64,000 nucleotides of DNA from Candidatus Eiseniibacteriota bacterium (lineage in GTDB: Bacteria; Eisenbacteria; RBG-16-71-46; CAVPCR01). Position 1 is the stretch's first letter. The number at the start of each line of letters is the position of its first letter. The notes under the pieces were generated by a model. The model was not told the DNA's origin and ran no database searches. It saw only the letters and a list, made by a program, of their open reading frames with translations. Below are positions 7,094 to 59,528 of the stretch, piece by piece. A program made the translations under genes and the position numbers. The DNA lies in the NCBI GenBank assembly GCA_963823555.1, contig CAWGMA010000001.1, forward strand, positions 640,001 to 704,000. Direction: 5' to 3'.

Positions 7094-7123
7094 TTGACAG
7101 GCTACCCGCCTGTGTAGCAAACT
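7094..7123 (+). promoter_or_regulatory. Sigma70-type promoter for dnaE-like/lexA
   Basis: TTGACA (7094-7099), 18-bp spacer, weak -10 CAAACT; ATG at 7133 without an obvious SD. Confidence 0.5.
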
Positions 7124-7132
7124 GTCGTCGAG

Positions 7133-10100
7133 ATGAGCATCCTACTCGATGTGCAGTCCGAGTTCAGCCTGCCCGAAGGAGGCGCCGCGGTCGAGGCGCT
7201 GGTCCGGCGTGCGGCCGCACTCGGGATCCGCGGTCTGGCCCTTGCCGACCGCGGCACCCTGGTGGCGGCTCCGGTCTTCGTGCGTGCCGCCCGCGCCGCG
7301 GGGATCGAGCCTCGGGTCGGCGTACGCTGCCGGGTGCAGGGAACATCGGGGCTCGATGTGCTGATCTTTCCCCGAGACGCCCGAGCCTGGCCCGTGCTCG
7401 CCGAGTTCGCCCGCCGGGGCGAGGTCGCCCCGCAGGAGCTGTCGACCATTGGCGGCGAGGCGGTTTCAGAGCAGCGCCTCCGGGTCCTTGCCGTGCTGCA
7501 CCCCGCCGCCGATCACGGGAGTGATGCGGAGATTCCAGCGCCGGGCGCGGCCCGTATCTCCGATCGCGATGCGGTATCCCGGCTCGCCACGGCCTTGCGC
7601 GCGCTGCGTTCCGCAGTCGGATCATCAGGACTCGCCCTCGCGCTGCCCGATCTTCGCGATTCCGCTTTGCTGGTCGAGCTGGGCCGTGACCTCGCCCTCC
7701 GTTGCGTGCTTGCACCGCCGGTTCACATCGTGGAGGTCGAGGATGCGCTGCTTCACCGTCTGCTCGTGATGATCCGGGGGGACCACGAGAGTGGAGGGAG
7801 CACGCCACGGCCCGGCCGACCGGTCTTCGAGCCCGGAGCGCTTGGTACCGCGGCATCCATCCTCGGCCGGGAGCTCGCTCCAGATGCGGAGCGTTTCTTC
7901 GCCGAGCTGGCGGTGCCAGACGAGTTCGTCGAGCCCCCGCTGCCAGACCTGGTGGCGGATGCGGAGGCGATCGCGGCGCTTCGTCATCGCGTCCTGGCCA
8001 TGTGTGCGGCTCAACGCCGGTTGCCGCCCGAATCCGTGCTCACTGCGGAGCTCGAAGCGATCGCCCGCCGCGGGGCTCTGGTTCCTCTGGCGAAGCTGGC
8101 CGAAGCGCTGCGGGCGCTCGGCGATCGGGTGCACCTGGGTGTGGATCCGGGATGGTGCGAAAGCTGGGTGGGCTGGGCTCTGGGCCTGACCACGGCGCCA
8201 CCGCGCGTGGCTGCTGCTCCGCCGGGCTGGGTCGATGGCCATGGTCCGCTGCCGCCTGTCACCGTCGAGATGGGTGAAGCAGGTGCGCGTGCCCTGCTCG
8301 CCCTGCTCGAGATCGCCGGAGCGCAGGAGCCCCGGGTCGCGATCCGGCTCGGTCCCGGGGAGGCCGTGCGCTGGTTGGCCACGGAGCGCGGATACGATTC
8401 CTCCTCGTTACGGCGGATCGCGGCTCTGGTGGCCGGCCGATCGCCGGCCCGGGAGCGGGCGCCCGCAGGATCCCGGAGGCTCGTCGCCGTGGCTGCGCAG
8501 CTCGCCGGGCGCATCATCGATCTGGCCGGTGACGCCACCATTCGCGTCTGGTCGCCGCTCTCGATAGCTGGGCGGGAGATTGATCGACTCACCGCCGATG
8601 CGACCGCGGCCGGCGGGTTGGCAGTGGGCGTCCGCTCCACACCGACTCTCTCGCTCCTCGAGCGGGCGGCCGTGAGTGGTCGCCGGTTGGCCGCGGGCGG
8701 TGCCGAACCGGTTCCCTGGTCGGAGCTGGCGGACCTACTGGCCGGACCTCTGGCCGGACGCGGGGGGGCCGCTTTCGCCCACTTGCTCCGCCAACGTCAG
8801 CCGGCCACGGTCCCCGATCTGGCGCGCGCTCTCGCTCTCGCCCGCCGCGCCCCCGATGCGCCGGCCCCGCATGTGCCCCAGATGACCGGGAGGGAAGCGC
8901 CTGCGTCTCCCGCGCGCCCCGGCACGCGCCCGGAGATCCTCTTCCATTCCGATGCCTCGTCTGCGTTGCGGCGCGCGGGAGTGGGGGAAGAGACGGCCGG
9001 CGAGCTGCTGCGCCGCGCGGCTGAAGGACGCGGTGGTCCGATGGCGGCGATGAGAGCCGATCTCGTCCGCGATCTCGAAGCGGCTGGCGGGTCCGGAGAA
9101 CGAGCCGAGGCGATCCTCGGCGCTCTTGTGCGCATCGTCCCGCATCTCGAGAGCGAGGGGCCGTGGCTCGCCCGGGCGCAGGCCCTTTCGCTGCTCGCCG
9201 ATCTTGCCGCACGCTCGCCGGAGGTCCTGGCACCGGCCATGGCGGATCTCCTTCCCGATCGACTGCCGTCCATCACAACCTGGGCCAAGCCGCTCAAGAT
9301 CGGCTTTCTCCGCCCTGATCTGAACTCGAGCGCCGTTGATTCCCGGGCCAGTGGCGCCCACGGCGAGACGAGGCTCATCCGGCTGGGGCTCCTTCACCTG
9401 CCGGGCGTGGACCGTGCCACCGCCGAGGTCCTGGCGGGCCTGCGCGCCGAGGCCCCGTTCTCCGATCGTGAGGATGTCGTGCGCCGGCTTCGCCACCGGA
9501 TCCCGGAGCAGCGGCTGCGCGCACTGCTCGGGAATGCCGCTCGTGGGGAGATGATCGCGGGGCAGGAAGCCGGATCGAGACCCAGCATGGCGTTGCGAGC
9601 GCAGCGCGAGCGCGTATCCGCACGCCGTTCCATCCATCCCCCGCGCCGCGGTCACGCCACCGTCGAACCCCTGGGAGATGCCATGCAGTTCGAGCTCTTT
9701 TCCGGACCCGCGGAGCGCCAGCGCATCTACACACCGACCCTGGCGCGCCACGGCATTCTGCGACTCGATCGGGTGGTGGCCACAGCGGAGGGAAGCCGTG
9801 TGCGGACCGTGGGTGTGATCCGCAGTCTGAGTGGCCTCGTGACCCGGGCTGGAAGGCGACTGGCTCGCGGGAGCCTGGAGGATGGTGGCGGCGCTGTCGA
9901 TCTCTTGCTCCTGCCCACGCTCTTCGACACCGCCGAGGATGTTCCGCTCGGCCGGCCGGTCGTGGTGGCGGGCCGCGTGAGCTTGCGCGAGGGCCGAGTC
10001 GAGCTCGTCGTCGAGAGCGCCATTCCACTCGAGCTCCTGGCTCAGGTGGAACAACCGCCGCTCGAGATTCTCTTGCCGCAAGGGTTTCGCCGCCTGCGCG

Positions 10101-10345
10101 CCCTCAAGCTGCGCTTGCTGAAGAGCCCGGGGCGATCGCCAGTGCACGTGCGCGCGCGATCCGGTGAACGAGCCCAGGTGGCAGCTCTTGGCCTGGGCCG
10201 CCTCGGAGTGACGGTGGATGATGGTCTGCTCGAGGACCTGAGGGTCCTTGTCGGCTCGGAGAGCGTGCGGCTCGTTGGCCCCGCTGGCGAGCGGGCAGCA
10301 CCGATGACAGAGACGGATCTACGCACCGCGGCTGGTGCGGCCTGA
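7133..10345 (+). CDS. DNA polymerase III alpha (DnaE)-like protein, predicted catalytically inactive
   Basis: Colinear with the dnaE in this window: PHP (SEFSLPEG...ALADRG...GIEPRVG), WVGWALGLT, PDLNSS, IRLGLLHLPGV (HhH), OB fold and CTD; PDIDIDF replaced by PPVTVEM. Confidence 0.85.
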   Translation: MSILLDVQSEFSLPEGGAAVEALVRRAAALGIRGLALADRGTLVAAPVFVRAARAAGIEPRVGVRCRVQGTSGLDVLIFPRDARAWPVLAEFARRGEVAPQELSTIGGEAVSEQRLRVLAVLHPAADHGSDAEIPAPGAARISDRDAVSRLATALRALRSAVGSSGLALALPDLRDSALLVELGRDLALRCVLAPPVHIVEVEDALLHRLLVMIRGDHESGGSTPRPGRPVFEPGALGTAASILGRELAPDAERFFAELAVPDEFVEPPLPDLVADAEAIAALRHRVLAMCAAQRRLPPESVLTAELEAIARRGALVPLAKLAEALRALGDRVHLGVDPGWCESWVGWALGLTTAPPRVAAAPPGWVDGHGPLPPVTVEMGEAGARALLALLEIAGAQEPRVAIRLGPGEAVRWLATERGYDSSSLRRIAALVAGRSPARERAPAGSRRLVAVAAQLAGRIIDLAGDATIRVWSPLSIAGREIDRLTADATAAGGLAVGVRSTPTLSLLERAAVSGRRLAAGGAEPVPWSELADLLAGPLAGRGGAAFAHLLRQRQPATVPDLARALALARRAPDAPAPHVPQMTGREAPASPARPGTRPEILFHSDASSALRRAGVGEETAGELLRRAAEGRGGPMAAMRADLVRDLEAAGGSGERAEAILGALVRIVPHLESEGPWLARAQALSLLADLAARSPEVLAPAMADLLPDRLPSITTWAKPLKIGFLRPDLNSSAVDSRASGAHGETRLIRLGLLHLPGVDRATAEVLAGLRAEAPFSDREDVVRRLRHRIPEQRLRALLGNAARGEMIAGQEAGSRPSMALRAQRERVSARRSIHPPRRGHATVEPLGDAMQFELFSGPAERQRIYTPTLARHGILRLDRVVATAEGSRVRTVGVIRSLSGLVTRAGRRLARGSLEDGGGAVDLLLLPTLFDTAEDVPLGRPVVVAGRVSLREGRVELVVESAIPLELLAQVEQPPLEILLPQGFRRLRALKLRLLKSPGRSPVHVRARSGERAQVAALGLGRLGVTVDDGLLEDLRVLVGSESVRLVGPAGERAAPMTETDLRTAAGAA

Positions 10346-10369: not shown

Positions 10370-11008
10370 ATGAGAGAAGATCTGACCGATCGCCAGCGGG
10401 AGGTTTACGACTTCCTCGTCGGCTTCTGGCAATCTCGCGGTTATCCGCCATCGATTCGCGAGGTGGCGAGTCATTTCGGATTCCGCTCGACACGCGCAGT
10501 CGTTGACCACCTCGGTGCGCTCGAGCGCAAGGGGTGGATCGTGCGCACGCGGGAACGCTCGCGCGCGATCGAGTTCCCCCTGGCGCGGATCTCGGGAGGG
10601 AGCGCTGCCGTCAGGGAGTCCGATCAGGTCATGGTGCTCCCGGTCGTGGGCCGCATAGCCGCCGGCGAGCCCATTCTCGCCGTCGAGAACATTGTCGACG
10701 AGATCTCGCTCGATCGGTCCTGGGTGCGAGGCCAGCGCCCCTTCCTGCTCAAGGTCGTTGGGGATTCCATGCGCGACGCCGGGATCCTCGATGGGGATTA
10801 CGTCCTCGTGAATGGCGAGGACAGGGCCGACGATGGGGACATCGTGGCTGCGATCATCGAGGACGAGGCCACCGTCAAGCGGCTGCGCAAGAACCGCGGC
10901 GAGGTCCTGCTCGAGCCGGCGAACCCGGCCTACTCGCCGATCCCGGTGCGGAGCGACCAGTCGTTCCAGCTCGTGGGCAAGGTGATCGGCGTCTTCCGCA
11001 AGCTGTAG
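10370..11008 (+). CDS. lexA: SOS transcriptional repressor LexA
   Basis: LTDRQREV, GYPPSIREVA wHTH, VGRIAAGEPILA cleavage site, GDSM Ser and ATVKRL Lys; GGAGG SD. Confidence 0.97.
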   Translation: MREDLTDRQREVYDFLVGFWQSRGYPPSIREVASHFGFRSTRAVVDHLGALERKGWIVRTRERSRAIEFPLARISGGSAAVRESDQVMVLPVVGRIAAGEPILAVENIVDEISLDRSWVRGQRPFLLKVVGDSMRDAGILDGDYVLVNGEDRADDGDIVAAIIEDEATVKRLRKNRGEVLLEPANPAYSPIPVRSDQSFQLVGKVIGVFRKL

Positions 11009-11072: not shown

Positions 11073-11101
11073 TTGACGGCCTCGATCGCGGCCGCTATAG
11101 T
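11073..11101 (+). promoter_or_regulatory. Sigma70 promoter of tRNA-Glu
   Basis: TTGACG-N17-TATAGT. Confidence 0.75.
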
Positions 11102-11175: not shown

Positions 11176-11253
11176 GTCCCCATCGTCTAGCCTGGCCTAG
11201 GACACCGGCCTTTCACGCCGGTAACACGGGTTCAAATCCCGTTGGGGACACCA
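11176..11253 (+). tRNA. tRNA-Glu(TTC)
   Basis: Acceptor stem GTCCCCA/TGGGGAC, anticodon arm CCGGC-CTTTCAC-GCCGG, T loop GGTTCAAATCC, encoded CCA. Confidence 0.97.
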
Positions 11254-56066: not shown

Positions 56067-59000
56067 ATGAGTCATCCACAGTTTGTCCACCTGCACAATC
56101 ACTCCGACTACAGCCTCCTCGATGGCGCCACTCCGCTCGCCGCCATGGCCCGGAGAGCCGCGGAGTTCGGCATGCCCGCGATCGCGCTCACCGATCACGG
56201 CAATCTCTTCGGTGCGATCGACTTCTACGAGAAGACCCGGGCGGCGGGAGTCAAGCCGATCATCGGCATCGAGGCCTACATCACCGCCGGCAAGTACACC
56301 GAGCGCGAGAAAGGCGGGGATCCGTCGAGCCGCTACTTTCACCTGGTGCTGCTCGCCCGTGACCTCGAGGGCTACAAGAACCTGATGCGCCTGACCTCGC
56401 GGGCCTTCCTCGAGGGTTTCTACTACAAGCCGCGCATCGATCACGAACTCCTGGCCGCTCACGCCGGCGGGCTCACCGCTCTCTCGGCGTGCCTCAAGGG
56501 CGAGGTGCCGTATCATGCGCTACGCGGCAACCGCGACGCCGCGGTGGCCGCCGCCCTCCGCTACCGCGACATCTTCGGCGAGGGCCAGTTCTTCCTCGAG
56601 CTGCAGGATCACGGCATTCCGGCGCAGAAGCAGGTGGATACGGAGCTCCTGGAGATCTCGCGCCTGACCGGGATCCCCCTCGTGGCCACCAATGATTGTC
56701 ACTACCTCGAGTGCAACGACGCCGAGGCGCATGATCTCCTGCTCTGCATCCAGACCGGAAAGACCGTCGACACGCCGGGGCGGATGAAGTACGGCTCGAA
56801 CCAGCTCTACATCAAGTCGCCCCAGGAGATGCTCCAGGTGTTCGGCGAGCAGCCGGAGGCGATCAGGAACACACTCCTCGTCGCCGAGGGATGTAACCTC
56901 GAGCTCGAGTTCGGGAAGCTCCATCTGCCGCACTTCCCCCTGCCCGAAGGCTATGCGAGCGTCGATGACTATCTGCGCGATCTCGCCAACCGCGGGCTCG
57001 CCCGGCGCTACAGCGAGATCACGCCCGAGATCCAGTCCCGCCTCGACTACGAGCTCGGCGTCATCATTCGCATGGGTTACGCGGGGTACTTCCTCGTCGT
57101 GCGCGATTTCGTGCACCGGGCGCAGGAGATCGGTGTCGCTGTCGGGCCCGGACGCGGCTCGGCGGCGGGCAGCCTCGTTTCCTACGCGCTCGGCATCACG
57201 AATATCGATCCACTGCGTTTCGGCCTCCTCTTCGAGCGCTTCCTGAATCCCGATCGGATCTCGATGCCGGACATCGACATCGACTTCTGTTACGAGCGCC
57301 GCGGCGAGATCATCGACTATGTCGTGCAGAAGTACGGCGAGGACTGCGTGACCCAGATCATCACGTTCGGCACCATGGGCGCGAGGGCCGTGCTGCGTGA
57401 TGTGGGCCGGGTCTTGAACCTGCCGTTCGCCGATGTCGATCGCATCGCCAAGCTGGTGCCGGCCGAGATCGGGATCACCCTGGATGATGCTGTGGAGCGC
57501 GTGCCCGAGCTGCGTGAGCTGCCGAAGAAGGGCGAGGTCTATGACAAGCTCCTGCGAGCGGGACGCACCCTCGAGGGCCTGAGCCGGCACTCCTCGGTTC
57601 ACGCCGCGGGAGTTCTCATCACGCCGACCCCGCTCATCGAGAACGTGCCGCTCCACAAGTCGTCAAAGGGTGAGGTCACCACCCAGTTCGACATGCGCGC
57701 CGTCGAGAAGATCGGCCTCCTCAAGATGGACTTTCTCGGCCTGCGCACCCTCACGGTGGTGCAGAAGGCCTTCACCATGCTCGAGGAGCTGCACGGGGTC
57801 GAGCTCACCATGGAGACGGTTCCGATCGACGATCCGGCGACCTACGAGCTCCTGAAGCGCGCCGAGACGATCGGGGTCTTCCAGCTCGAGTCGAGCGGGA
57901 TGCGCGATCTCCTCCGGCGACTCCAGCCCGAGGCCTTCGAGGATGTGATCGCCGTCAACGCGCTCTTCCGTCCCGGGCCCCTGGGTTCGGGCATGGTGGA
58001 CGACTACATCGCCTGCAAGCACGGCCGGAAGAAGATCGAGTACGAGCTCCCGGAGCTCGAGCCGATCCTCCGTGAGACCTACGGCACGATTCTCTACCAG
58101 GAACAGGTGATGCAGATCGCCTCCGCCCTCGGCGGCTTCTCGCTCGCTCAAGCGGACATCCTGCGCAAGGCGATGGGCAAGAAGAAGCCGGAGGAGATGG
58201 CCAAGCAGCGGGAGGCGTTCGTCAAGGGGGCCGCCGCCCGCAACATCCCGGAGGCGAAGGCGAGCCGCATCTTCGAGCTCATGGCCCACTTCGCGGGCTA
58301 CGGGTTCAACAAGTCGCACTCGGCGGCCTATGCCTTGATCTCCGTCGTCACTGCCTACTTGAAGGCGCACTATCCCGTTGCGTTCATGGCCGCCTCGCTG
58401 ACTTCGGAAATGGACTCCTCCGATCGCATCGTCATCCTGGTCGACGAGTGCCGGCGGATGGGGATCGAGGTCATGCCCCCGGACGTGAACGCGTCCTACG
58501 CCCAGTTCACAGTCGAGGGGAAGCGCATCCGGTTCGGGCTCGGGGCGGTCAAGAATGTCGGGCCGGGGGCGATCGCCGAGATGCTGCGCGCCCGGGAGAG
58601 CGAAGGGCTGTTCCTCGGCCTCCATGATCTCTGCCGGCGCGTCGATCTGGGACGCGTCAACCGGCGGGTGATCGAGAGCCTGATCGGCGCGGGTGCCTGC
58701 GACGAACTGGGCGGGCACCGGGCGCAGCTCATGGCCGCGGTCGGGGAGGCCTTCTCGGTCGGGCAGCGCGCCCAGCGCGAGCGTGCGCGGGGACAGGAGT
58801 CCCTGTTCGGCGAAGCGGCCGCCGCCGAGATCGAACCGTCGCGCCTTCCCGATGCCGAACCCTGGGACACCAAGACGCGCATCGCGCGCGAGAAGGAGTT
58901 CCTGGGGTTCTATCTCACCGATCATCCGCTGGCTGCCCTGCGCCAGGAGATCAGCGCGATCTCGAGCGCCGACTCGCAGGTGCTCAAGTCGATGTCCGAC

Positions 59001-59528
59001 GGTTCCGAGGTGCGTCTGGTCGGGCTGGTGAACGCCATCAAGCGCATCTCCGATCGCAAGGGCAAGCCGATGGCCTTCGTGACCCTCGAGGACTTCGCCG
59101 GTCTGGTCGAGGTGCTCGTGTTCTCCGACGCCTGCGAGGCGGCCGGGTCCGAGCTGGCCGTCGACGAGGTGATGGCGGTCGAGGGCCGGGTATCCACTCG
59201 CGAGAACGAGGAGGCGAAGCTGGTCGCCTCACGCATCATGTCCTTCGAGCGGGCGCGCCAGGAGATGGTGGGTGCCCTGGAGATCGCGCTCGATGCCACC
59301 CCGGGGGCCGAGCTGGTGGCGGCGATCGACCGCGCCCTCGCCCGCCATCCGGGGTCGGGACAGCTCATCTTCAAGGTGCTCGGTGACTCTGGCGATGCCG
59401 TCCGGGTGCTGGCCCGGGGCCGCCAGGTGGCCCTGTCCGGGGATCTGGTGCGCGACGTGGCCGAGCTCGTGGGCGAGGAGCGCGTCCGGCTTTGCCAGCG
59501 CGAGCCCATTCCCGCCGGGCTCGCCTAG
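56067..59528 (+). CDS. dnaE: DNA polymerase III subunit alpha (replicative DnaE1)
   Basis: FVHLHNHSDYSLLDG, GPGRGSAAGS, MPDIDIDF, KMDFLGL, YGFNKSH, QESLF clamp motif, OB fold, CTD. Confidence 0.98.
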   Translation: MSHPQFVHLHNHSDYSLLDGATPLAAMARRAAEFGMPAIALTDHGNLFGAIDFYEKTRAAGVKPIIGIEAYITAGKYTEREKGGDPSSRYFHLVLLARDLEGYKNLMRLTSRAFLEGFYYKPRIDHELLAAHAGGLTALSACLKGEVPYHALRGNRDAAVAAALRYRDIFGEGQFFLELQDHGIPAQKQVDTELLEISRLTGIPLVATNDCHYLECNDAEAHDLLLCIQTGKTVDTPGRMKYGSNQLYIKSPQEMLQVFGEQPEAIRNTLLVAEGCNLELEFGKLHLPHFPLPEGYASVDDYLRDLANRGLARRYSEITPEIQSRLDYELGVIIRMGYAGYFLVVRDFVHRAQEIGVAVGPGRGSAAGSLVSYALGITNIDPLRFGLLFERFLNPDRISMPDIDIDFCYERRGEIIDYVVQKYGEDCVTQIITFGTMGARAVLRDVGRVLNLPFADVDRIAKLVPAEIGITLDDAVERVPELRELPKKGEVYDKLLRAGRTLEGLSRHSSVHAAGVLITPTPLIENVPLHKSSKGEVTTQFDMRAVEKIGLLKMDFLGLRTLTVVQKAFTMLEELHGVELTMETVPIDDPATYELLKRAETIGVFQLESSGMRDLLRRLQPEAFEDVIAVNALFRPGPLGSGMVDDYIACKHGRKKIEYELPELEPILRETYGTILYQEQVMQIASALGGFSLAQADILRKAMGKKKPEEMAKQREAFVKGAAARNIPEAKASRIFELMAHFAGYGFNKSHSAAYALISVVTAYLKAHYPVAFMAASLTSEMDSSDRIVILVDECRRMGIEVMPPDVNASYAQFTVEGKRIRFGLGAVKNVGPGAIAEMLRARESEGLFLGLHDLCRRVDLGRVNRRVIESLIGAGACDELGGHRAQLMAAVGEAFSVGQRAQRERARGQESLFGEAAAAEIEPSRLPDAEPWDTKTRIAREKEFLGFYLTDHPLAALRQEISAISSADSQVLKSMSDGSEVRLVGLVNAIKRISDRKGKPMAFVTLEDFAGLVEVLVFSDACEAAGSELAVDEVMAVEGRVSTRENEEAKLVASRIMSFERARQEMVGALEIALDATPGAELVAAIDRALARHPGSGQLIFKVLGDSGDAVRVLARGRQVALSGDLVRDVAELVGEERVRLCQREPIPAGLA

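Follow-up and report, generated by a model that had tools for sequence, protein, structure and literature searches.

The catalytic aspartates of the C-family DNA polymerases have been called absolutely conserved (PMC3919608). In two surveys of bacterial polymerases, catalytically dead members are described in the Y and X families (PMC3919608, PMC12926913), and the available part of the later survey names no dead C-family group (PMC12926913). The C-terminal domain (CTD) is never present in DnaE2 (PMC3919608), and in the clamp motif Q-x-x-L-F positions 1, 4 and 5 are the important ones (PMC3919608), QLDLF being the strongest-binding clamp peptide (PMC11139829). An engineered E. coli alpha, D403E, is dominant negative and inhibits replication when premixed, and it enters running forks only if bound to tau-containing DnaX (PMC10850973). 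The window analyzed here, a stretch of 64,000 nucleotides, encodes a DnaE paralogue without these aspartates, directly before lexA. No description of a selected dead Pol III alpha before lexA was found in the literature searched. Our preferred reading, held with slightly less than even confidence, is that this protein is a damage-induced mimic of Pol III alpha, which would dock on the beta clamp through its QxDLF motif and probably on tau through its CTD.

The dead DnaE and its domains

7133..10345, + strand: predicted catalytically dead DnaE (Pol III alpha) paralogue P0001, 1070 aa (ORF, Pfam, Foldseek, profile)
7133..7918, + strand: PHP domain with erased metal site (HxHxH to LLDVQ, TDH to ADR, NDCH to PPVH)
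8249..8272, + strand: remnant of the first catalytic motif, LPPVTVEM replacing MPDIDIDF
8612..8638, + strand: remnant of the third-aspartate motif, GGLAVGVRS replacing GLLKMDFLG; the aspartate has given way to Arg, Thr or Gly
9299..9526, + strand: tandem helix-hairpin-helix (HhH) domain with conserved arginines (Pfam HHH_6, E 3.3e-8)
9548..9679, + strand: hypervariable linker preceding the motif, likely disordered (conservation 0.31, dN/dS 0.78, pLDDT <50)
9686..9700, + strand: clamp-binding-type motif QFELF, residues 852-856 of P0001; family consensus MQ[YF]DLF
9797..10027, + strand: OB fold with conserved basic loop R905, R908, R909 (Pfam, E 4.3e-7)
10058..10276, + strand: DnaE CTD (tau-binding in Pol III alpha), residues ~976-1048 (hhalign)
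56067..59528, + strand: replicative DnaE1 P0002, for comparison; intact PDIDID and KMDFL, QESLF at 58794-58808, CTD from ~59277

P0001 matches the DnaE1 profile over its full length (E 4e-44), and its top Foldseek matches are the DnaE structures 7pu7, 4iqj and 2hpi. Pfam, profile and structure searches give the domain order PHP-Pol3-(HhH)2-clamp motif-OB-CTD, as in DnaE1. The protein is rich in Ala, Arg and Leu and strongly diverged from active DnaE. An earlier note on this DNA had called it dead, which the residues bear out: D402, D404, D406 and D555 of the real DnaE, P0002, correspond to P375, T377, E379 and G499, and the catalytic aspartates (D401, D403 and D555 in E. coli) are thereby absent, with P375, T377 and G499 in their places. 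Sequence comparison finds the erased active sites common to the whole dead family. In the first motif the position of aspartate 1 is free to vary, the second is Glu or Thr (Glu in most members at the position of T377) and the third is an invariant Glu; the position of G499 is Arg in most members. Judged from its residues, P0001 is a full-length DnaE that is dead both as a polymerase and in its PHP domain.

The Pfam boundaries of HhH (723-798) and OB (890-965) place QFELF between these domains, in agreement with the position given in the earlier note. Its proposed counterpart, QESLF of P0002 (residues 910-914), is confirmed by global profile-profile alignment, which puts QFELF on QESLF and reveals a deletion of ~34 residues behind the motif in P0001; the register rests on profiles, as plain pairwise alignment placed QESLF ~20 residues further upstream. 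About 0.04 occurrences of Q..LF are expected in P0001 by chance. Directly following a linker of mean conservation 0.31, the motif forms an island of invariance: Q, L and F are unchanged in all 13 motif-spanning sequences of alignment A4, and in 13 of 14 when every member spanning the region is counted, including the G003 member P0012 that is absent from A4. The dead-family consensus Q[YF]DLF is closer to QLDLF than the replicative QESLF is.

The exception, P0012, has no Q..LF-type motif in any of its frames. It is a shortened protein without the motif, HhH and OB but with the tail retained, and its gene still precedes lexA. The motif is not indispensable, because the G003 member has lost it along with HhH and OB. 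The dead DnaE form of family f14 has lost HhH, OB and CTD altogether, and with these two cases neither docking module is universal.

The tail was described in the earlier note as a DnaE1-type CTD, and it matches the DnaE1 CTD at an hhalign probability of 97.6 (E 2.9e-12), with a predicted fold of pLDDT about 80-90. With the CTD profile, seven of the eight dead members examined are detected at E <1e-3, as against none of three DnaE2 proteins; the proposed conservation of motif and CTD among orthologues thus stands at the counts given. A structure search with the C-terminal model returned matches filled by OB folds, and model mb7903605aa7e aligns with OB folds including that of DnaE 7pu7 (Z 10.6, rmsd 3.5 over 105 residues).

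Conservation, selection and origin

The dead DnaE is kept in all five genomes of one Candidatus Eisenbacteria order. All eight full-length members (that of the window, G001 and P0003-P0008) have open frames of 1059-1125 aa and share 47-64% identity, and overall dN/dS is 0.28 between P0001 and G001 and 0.19 between G001 and L037. By region, dN/dS is 0.23-0.27 in the dead palm, fingers and HhH, 0.19 in the motif plus OB and 0.23 in the CTD; all folded domains fall within 0.19-0.32, with relaxation only in the linker (0.78). Purifying selection acts on the whole dead DnaE, which is not decaying, and conservation in the dead core roughly equals that in the docking modules. The earlier note had argued from surfaces kept while catalysis is lost for function over decay, and had suggested comparing conservation by domain. 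The argument for function holds, in view of the selection observed, but the constraint is not special to the docking modules (0.19-0.23), since the dead palm, fingers and HhH are likewise constrained. A decaying relic, surviving only through its place in the lexA transcript, would agree with the divergence from active DnaE, the biased composition and the large deletions in G003; this reading is largely refuted by the eight open frames and by dN/dS values of 0.19-0.28 relaxed only in the linker, and we consider it highly improbable.

The equal selection on core and docking modules would also suit a protein that chiefly binds DNA, as a shield or as a sensor of gaps and primer-template junctions, its clamp and tau contacts being secondary and losable. 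The core is kept without the motif in G003 and without the CTD in the f14 form, and many arginines are conserved across the HhH, OB and CTD of the dead family; at the positions of R750, R761, R771, R784, R785 and R789 in HhH, at least 90% of aligned members have a basic residue. Such a role is nevertheless improbable, as HhH and OB, the parts that usually bind DNA, are missing from the G003 member too, and the motif persists as an invariant island after a free linker. Conservation at the protein's opposite end suggests yet another role. D6, Q8, E10, D39, E59, H208, D217 and E219 at the PHP end are kept in at least 90% of aligned members, and the best-kept patch common with the G003 member is HRLL..IRGDHE..PRPG (residues 208-230, end of PHP); residues 169-231 are 58% identical even with this divergent protein. 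The PHP end might have acquired a new function in binding or catalysis (binding of a partner protein or a nucleotide, for instance), with the C-terminal modules merely placing it at the fork. We regard this as quite improbable: the canonical metal ligands are gone, PHP residues 195-246 are poorly predicted in the model (pLDDT <50), and the patch is missing from the f14 form.

A DnaE1 origin, as put forward in the earlier note, is supported insofar as the dead family descends from a CTD-bearing DnaE, but the nearest active relative is likely the accessory CTD-bearing DnaE of family f12 and not the replicative dnaE. In an OB+CTD tree, the dead family is sister to the f12 accessory active DnaE (97/82), and grouping with the replicative DnaE1 of the lineage is rejected in one AU test (p 0.006, LG+G4) but not in another (p 0.198, mixture model), tests that are weakened by the f12 group having been named after the search matches were seen. 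In two trees the dead family, with its very long branch and biased composition, lies outside the 100/100 DnaE1 clade. Subsets of 20, 25, 53 or 61 rows, out of about 150 sequences, were used for the trees, which weakens the AU tests as well. The f14 dead DnaE matches the dead family at hhalign E 7e-6 and DnaE1 at E 2e-63; as to the origin of the two dead forms, a joint clade with f12 was not rejected (p 0.386). A FastTree whole-protein tree joined the dead family to other long branches, and small whole-protein trees put it on the DnaE2 side. A DnaE2 origin is not shown by the small trees: per-domain identities to 96 DnaE1-side and 34 DnaE2 sequences are nearly equal, and the per-domain sisters are inconsistent.

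Position before lexA and a candidate SOS box

7094..7123, + strand: predicted promoter; TTGACA 7094-7099, 18-nt spacer, weak -10-like CAAACT 7118-7123
7102..7117, no strand given: candidate LexA (SOS) box in the promoter spacer, a 16-bp imperfect palindrome of the CTATAC-N4-GTATAG type
10370..11008, + strand: lexA (Pfam), separated from the dead gene by 24 nt and preceded by a ribosome-binding site of its own
11176..11253, + strand: tRNA-Glu, downstream of lexA; promoter-like site of its own at 11073-11101

The strongest context of the dead gene, the lexA operon with its candidate SOS box, is absent from the earlier note. Dead dnaE lies directly before lexA in all six loci with downstream DNA (G000, G001, G003, G004, L037 and L038); its neighbours in the loci read are lexA and tRNA-Glu, and not polY, dnaE2, imuA or imuB. 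The -10-like CAAACT is 9 nt from the ATG of dead dnaE, so a nearly leaderless transcript is likely. The promoter layout is identical in the six upstream regions compared, and all six contain the candidate box; a consensus promoter scanner did not include 7094-7123 among its listed sites. A metatranscriptome contig of 241 nt is identical to 9793-10033 at low depth, and is not counted as expression because DNA carry-over is possible.

A matrix built on five orthologous sites ranks the site of the window 14th in the 4.6-Mb genome. Scores of at least 11 are found before recA in 4/5 genomes, before 6/12 PolY-family genes and before G004 imuA, against 0/5 dnaX/dnaN controls (the G004 dnaX control window covered the gene itself, not 600 nt upstream) and 1.7% of 600 random upstream windows, although the matrix, rich in AT where the genome is rich in GC, favours promoters generally. 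The matrix scan found no candidate box before G002 recA and the remaining six PolY-family genes, and none directly before lexA, where the best score over 250 nt upstream is -2.8 to 1.5 in the four genomes of the order with that DNA. The upstream region of replicative dnaE reaches 3.6, which leaves it without a candidate SOS box. Dead dnaE heads an operon with lexA, and the palindrome common to the promoters of dead dnaE, recA and several dinB, dnaE2 and imuA genes makes SOS regulation of the gene likely. A candidate LexA box for this lineage is thus proposed.

In G000 the predicted box regulon takes in a dinB-dnaE2 operon and a second polY. Sharing a predicted regulon with these polymerases would suit an ImuB-like hub, in which the dead polymerase recruits PolY or DnaE2 to the clamp, or passes the fork on to it, instead of acting as a brake. 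The clamp motif is essential in ImuB, itself a dead polymerase (PMC10421592), and in G000 dnaE2 has no adjoining imuA or imuB and all three PF00817 matches look catalytically intact. This role appears unlikely, given that imuA-imuB-dnaE2 co-occurs with the dead DnaE in G003 and G004, which speaks against a replacement of ImuB, that the G000 PolY proteins own clamp-type motifs (one is QFELF), and that the dead gene adjoins neither polY nor dnaE2 in any locus read.

Related families fill the slot before lexA with other proteins whose ends carry a clamp-type motif, a point in favour of the alpha mimic. G017 has a shorter dead DnaE there, ending in QMEMPW (QLDMPW in its relative P0173); in the f14 relative P0172 a clamp-type motif is not clear. 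Family f8 has a small protein before lexA with an invariant Q..LF, a clamp-type motif, at its end. This protein has no Pfam match, its atlas matches are all <0.9, and the conserved leader preceding it matches nothing in Rfam. The f8 protein was also considered as a DnaE palm fragment and rejected, as its hhalign E values, 0.06 against DnaE1 and 0.23 against the dead family, did not improve on a reversed control.

Proposed mechanism and comparison with known systems

Under our preferred reading of P0001 as an alpha mimic, LexA would repress the operon and DNA damage would induce it. The dead DnaE would then bind the clamp and primer-template DNA via its motif, HhH, fingers and OB, the long variable linker leaving the motif-OB-CTD module free to contact clamp and tau separately from the body. 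Being unable to extend a primer, it would take the replicative alpha's place at clamps that are stalled or newly loaded, and would hold or slow the fork, or shield the primer end, until repair or a translesion polymerase can step in. Several observations count against the mimic: the G003 gene stays before lexA without encoding motif, HhH or OB, the best-kept patch at residues 208-230 is left unexplained, and the ~34-residue deletion after the motif may have cost the protein an alpha-like geometry on clamp and DNA. The domain losses of the f14 form, the lack of a clear motif in P0172, the missing boxes at G002 recA and half of the PolY-family genes and the AT-rich matrix weigh on the same side. 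A bolder version, possible but doubtful, is a new SOS module: a natural dominant-negative Pol III alpha, co-transcribed with lexA, that loads via clamp and tau and pauses forks after damage as the replication counterpart to SulA. If this were true, the shorter dead DnaEs and the small clamp-motif protein in the same slot would turn occupation of the clamp into a general, hidden branch of the SOS response.

A Pol III alpha that is dead yet conserved and selected, and that is likely controlled by LexA, would represent a new type of pseudoenzyme. With it one could test whether a dedicated factor actively pauses or remodels the replisome after damage, and how the replicative polymerase gets swapped out at stalled forks. 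Although the hosts are uncultured, expression of the proteins and their study in vitro are feasible.

The f12 accessory CTD-bearing DnaE of the same class (G037, G021, G014, G032, G027 and P0022), of which no description was found in the literature searched, has CTD and pre-OB signatures in common with the dead DnaE and lies near rarA, like the dead gene in the window. It differs by intact polymerase and PHP motifs, a hexameric Q.ELGL and the lack of such a box, and in G037 it does not adjoin lexA. Alpha D403E (PMC10850973) is likewise a dead alpha with its docking surfaces kept, and most dead-family members have Glu at the D403-equivalent position; it is a laboratory point mutant, however, and the natural protein is far more diverged, which makes the likeness a lead only. 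With DnaE2 (PMC3919608, PMC12926913), P0001 shares the status of a non-replicative DnaE paralogue, an inactive PHP domain and predicted SOS control. DnaE2 is active with a non-canonical clamp motif, whereas P0001 is predicted to be dead and has the CTD; a separate intact DnaE2 is encoded in the same genome. ImuB, too, is a polymerase homologue that has lost catalysis, carries a clamp motif and is encoded in an SOS-linked operon, but it belongs to the Y family, whereas Pfam, profile and structure searches assign P0001 a C-family fold with the tau-type CTD kept. A general Pfam scan of P0001 gave no RecA-NT or ImuB-C match, and in G003 and G004 the dead DnaE accompanies a true imuA-imuB-dnaE2. 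P0001 resembles DnaE1 (4iqj, 2hpi, 7pu7, 5fkv; PMC3919608) in fold, domain order, the Q, L and F of the clamp motif and the CTD. It differs from DnaE1 in the missing catalytic aspartates, the erased PHP site and the ~34 residues deleted after the motif, and its gene stands before lexA behind a candidate SOS box that replicative dnaE lacks.

A catalytically dead DnaE heading the lexA operon

P0001 is a dead but folded and selected DnaE that carries a clamp-binding-type motif, an OB domain and a DnaE C-terminal domain (CTD), and it heads the lexA operon.

Features around the lexA operon
1-1362: rarA/mgsA, 5.8 kb before the dead gene
7133-10345, + strand: dead DnaE ORF (P0001), 1070 aa
11176-11253: tRNA-Glu, behind lexA

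All five Pfam domains are present in the second DnaE of the window, the replicative P0002 (56067-59528). P0001 matches PHP (7-69), HhH (723-798) and OB (890-965), and its polymerase core has no Pfam match. Compared by profile with 44 DnaE sequences, P0001 aligns over its entire length (E 4e-44), and a structure search with its AlphaFold model (mean pLDDT 68.7) ranks DnaE structures first (7pu7, 4iqj, 2hpi; E down to 4e-26). In profile comparison, D402, D404, D406 and D555 of P0002 correspond to P375, T377, E379 and G499 of P0001; across the dead family these positions are, respectively, variable, Glu/Thr, Glu and Arg/Thr/Gly. The PHP histidines are likewise lost.

The protein database yielded six full-length homologues (47-59% identity), and the gene occurs in all five genomes of the order. 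With the same profile, the remaining 201 of the 206 phylum genomes searched give weak matches alone (E 1e-21 or higher), which we read as other DnaEs. Among 1.84 billion representatives searched by profile, ten family matches score above 250 bits, after which scores fall to those of ordinary DnaEs; the dead family is therefore small. Among the profile matches are also three unrelated-looking DnaEs with degraded catalytic motifs (P0160, P0141, P0062).

Downstream of the dead gene, lexA begins 24 nt past the stop codon, with no terminator-like site listed between them. The same adjacency holds in 6/6 loci with downstream DNA (G000, G001, G003, G004, L037, L038); genome G002, where the contig ends within the dead gene, is outside this count. 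A tRNA resembling the tRNA-Glu of the window also lies behind lexA in several relatives.

Docking parts and selection

The earlier note had located QFELF in P0001 (window 9686-9700) and its counterpart QESLF in P0002 (58794-58808), and both positions are confirmed; QFELF occupies residues 852-856. Global profile alignment places one motif onto the other, with ~34 residues deleted behind it in P0001. The tail is a DnaE1-type CTD, as had been proposed (profile match at 97.6% probability). Modelled alone from a 17-row alignment, five rows of which are accessory DnaEs, OB and CTD reach a pLDDT of about 80-90, and the motif itself is disordered.

Conservation of motif and CTD among orthologues is borne out with one exception. 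Q852, L855 and F856 are invariant in 13/13 aligned members spanning these positions, and the preceding linker has a conservation of 0.31. The exception is the 719-aa member of G003: no frame of it encodes HhH, motif or OB, but a CTD-like tail is retained (E 9e-6). This protein (L033:9844-12003) has three PTFA repeats at the site of the deletion.

The dN/dS values against the G001 gene, rough because dS is near 1, are 0.32 for PHP, 0.23 for palm, 0.27 for fingers, 0.26 for HhH, 0.19 for motif plus OB, 0.23 for CTD and 0.78 for the linker. Selection maintains the whole protein, and the docking parts are not singled out. The earlier view that docking surfaces are kept, and that function is favoured over decay, thus stands as regards selection, motif and CTD, but the dead core is kept as well.

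Candidate LexA box and proposed role

In 6/6 available upstream regions, TTGAC is followed by a 16-bp imperfect palindrome 15-16 nt from the ATG. Genome-wide, a matrix built from five orthologous sites, excluding the own site, puts the dinB-dnaE2 operon at about rank 7, the own site at 14, a second polY at about 16 and recA at 73; a third polY and dnaN score low. The two top-ranked sites lie at the start of what we take to be a class II ribonucleotide reductase-like gene and before a presumed radical-SAM, SplB-type repair enzyme-like gene. Many further top-ranked sites are without an obvious repair gene. Candidate regulon sites of the type CTATAC-N4-GTATAG are G000:C1:1805420, C4:497424, C1:1476662, C3:294279 and the C1 recA promoter near 1994975. 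The PolY at G000:C3:209803-211080 carries the same QFELF pentapeptide near its C-terminus, without a candidate SOS box.

Across genomes, with the own site added to the matrix, scores of 11 or more occur before recA in 4/5 genomes, before 6/12 PolY-family genes (13 matches, one duplicate dropped) and before imuA of G004, as against 0/5 dnaX/dnaN controls and 1.7% of 600 random upstream windows. Directly before lexA, the box is absent in the order's four lexA-holding genomes. The simplest reading is that LexA would repress its own gene via the dead dnaE promoter, both genes forming a single transcript. Several other families of the class have TGCAC-N4-GTGCA-like sites before lexA in place of this box.

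Related proteins and mutagenic cassettes
L124:1024-3432 (G017), L153:1914-4037 (G039), P0172, P0173: f14 shorter dead DnaE family, without HhH, OB, CTD
L121:5684-6136 (G010), L122, L123, L126, L161, L164: f8 small protein, before lexA
L034 (G000:C1:1471933-1476700): polY-dnaE2 cassette
L118 (G006), L127 (G015): lexA-polY-dnaE2 cassette
L119 (G004), L120 (G003): imuA-imuB-dnaE2 cassette

The reading we favour, tentatively, is that the dead DnaE is a mimic of Pol III alpha, which would pause or hold replication forks by occupying the clamp and the primer end. DNA damage would induce it, and it would bind the beta clamp and tau and act at replication forks. According to PMC11139829, QLDLF, to which the family motif is close, is the strongest-binding clamp peptide; PMC10850973 describes an engineered dead alpha that inhibited replication and needed tau to enter running forks. 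The G000 dnaX (C1 near 2004640, L066) is interrupted by a frameshift in domain III, possibly an assembly error; G001 reads through.

The main rival, an ImuB-like hub for translesion polymerases, seems less likely and is weakened by the true imuA-imuB-dnaE2 operons of G003 and G004. Comparable proteins precede lexA in related families. The f14 genome G017 has, directly upstream of lexA, an 803-aa dead DnaE lacking HhH, OB and CTD, with a box-like site (score 13.4) and the C-terminal end QMEMPW; one relative ends QLDMPW, while in a further one no motif is clear. Two of three complete members carry a hexameric clamp-type ending. These endings resemble the hexameric ImuB motif QLPLWG (PMC10421592). 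In family f8 (7/8 genomes), the four fully read loci have before lexA a gene for a 140-170-aa protein of no known family and with no detectable DnaE homology; close to the C-terminus of this protein, a Q..LF is invariant. Box scores at these loci are 6-11, and the conserved leader of about 200 nt preceding the gene has no Rfam match. Three points speak against the mimic and the hub alike: G003 has lost the motif, f14 has lost the CTD, and neither reading explains a conserved patch at the end of the PHP domain.

Origin and relation to known systems

Whole-protein trees, unreliable because the dead-family branch is so long, place the family outside the well-supported replicative DnaE1 clade. Grouping with three replicative Eisenbacteria DnaE1s is not rejected by the AU test under a mixture model (p 0.198); grouping with five is rejected under LG+G4 (p 0.006). 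In f12, a family of this class, a replicative DnaE1, where read (G037, G014), is accompanied by another DnaE that has a CTD and whose active sites are intact.

L148:3473-7024 (G037), L149, L150, L151, L152, P0022: f12 accessory DnaE, Q.ELGL motif, near rarA

Its pre-OB helix and CTD are similar to those of the dead family, and the two are sisters in an OB+CTD tree (97/82; 53 rows, 203 columns), with a mean identity there of 25% versus 22% and 20% with other DnaE1s. Both lie near rarA, which is at 1-1362 of the window. The f12 accessory DnaE is likely the closest active relative, and the ancestor was likely a DnaE of this accessory, CTD-bearing kind and not the replicative P0002. The DnaE1 origin advanced earlier is thus upheld as to a CTD-bearing DnaE and revised as to which one; the underlying observation stands, and its interpretation is supported in part. 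That the CTD rules out a typical DnaE2, as the earlier note had it, agrees with PMC3919608. The degraded motifs of P0160, P0141 and P0062 suggest repeated origins of dead DnaEs.

Literature searches listed no paper describing a naturally occurring DnaE without catalytic activity, and none dealing with the LexA of Eisenbacteria; sequences of inactive C-family enzymes could be among the supplements of PMC12926913 and PMC3919608. The dead DnaE is real and conserved, and falls outside DnaE1, DnaE2 and ImuB by their defining tests. ImuB is closest to it in idea, but the dead DnaE has a C-family body.
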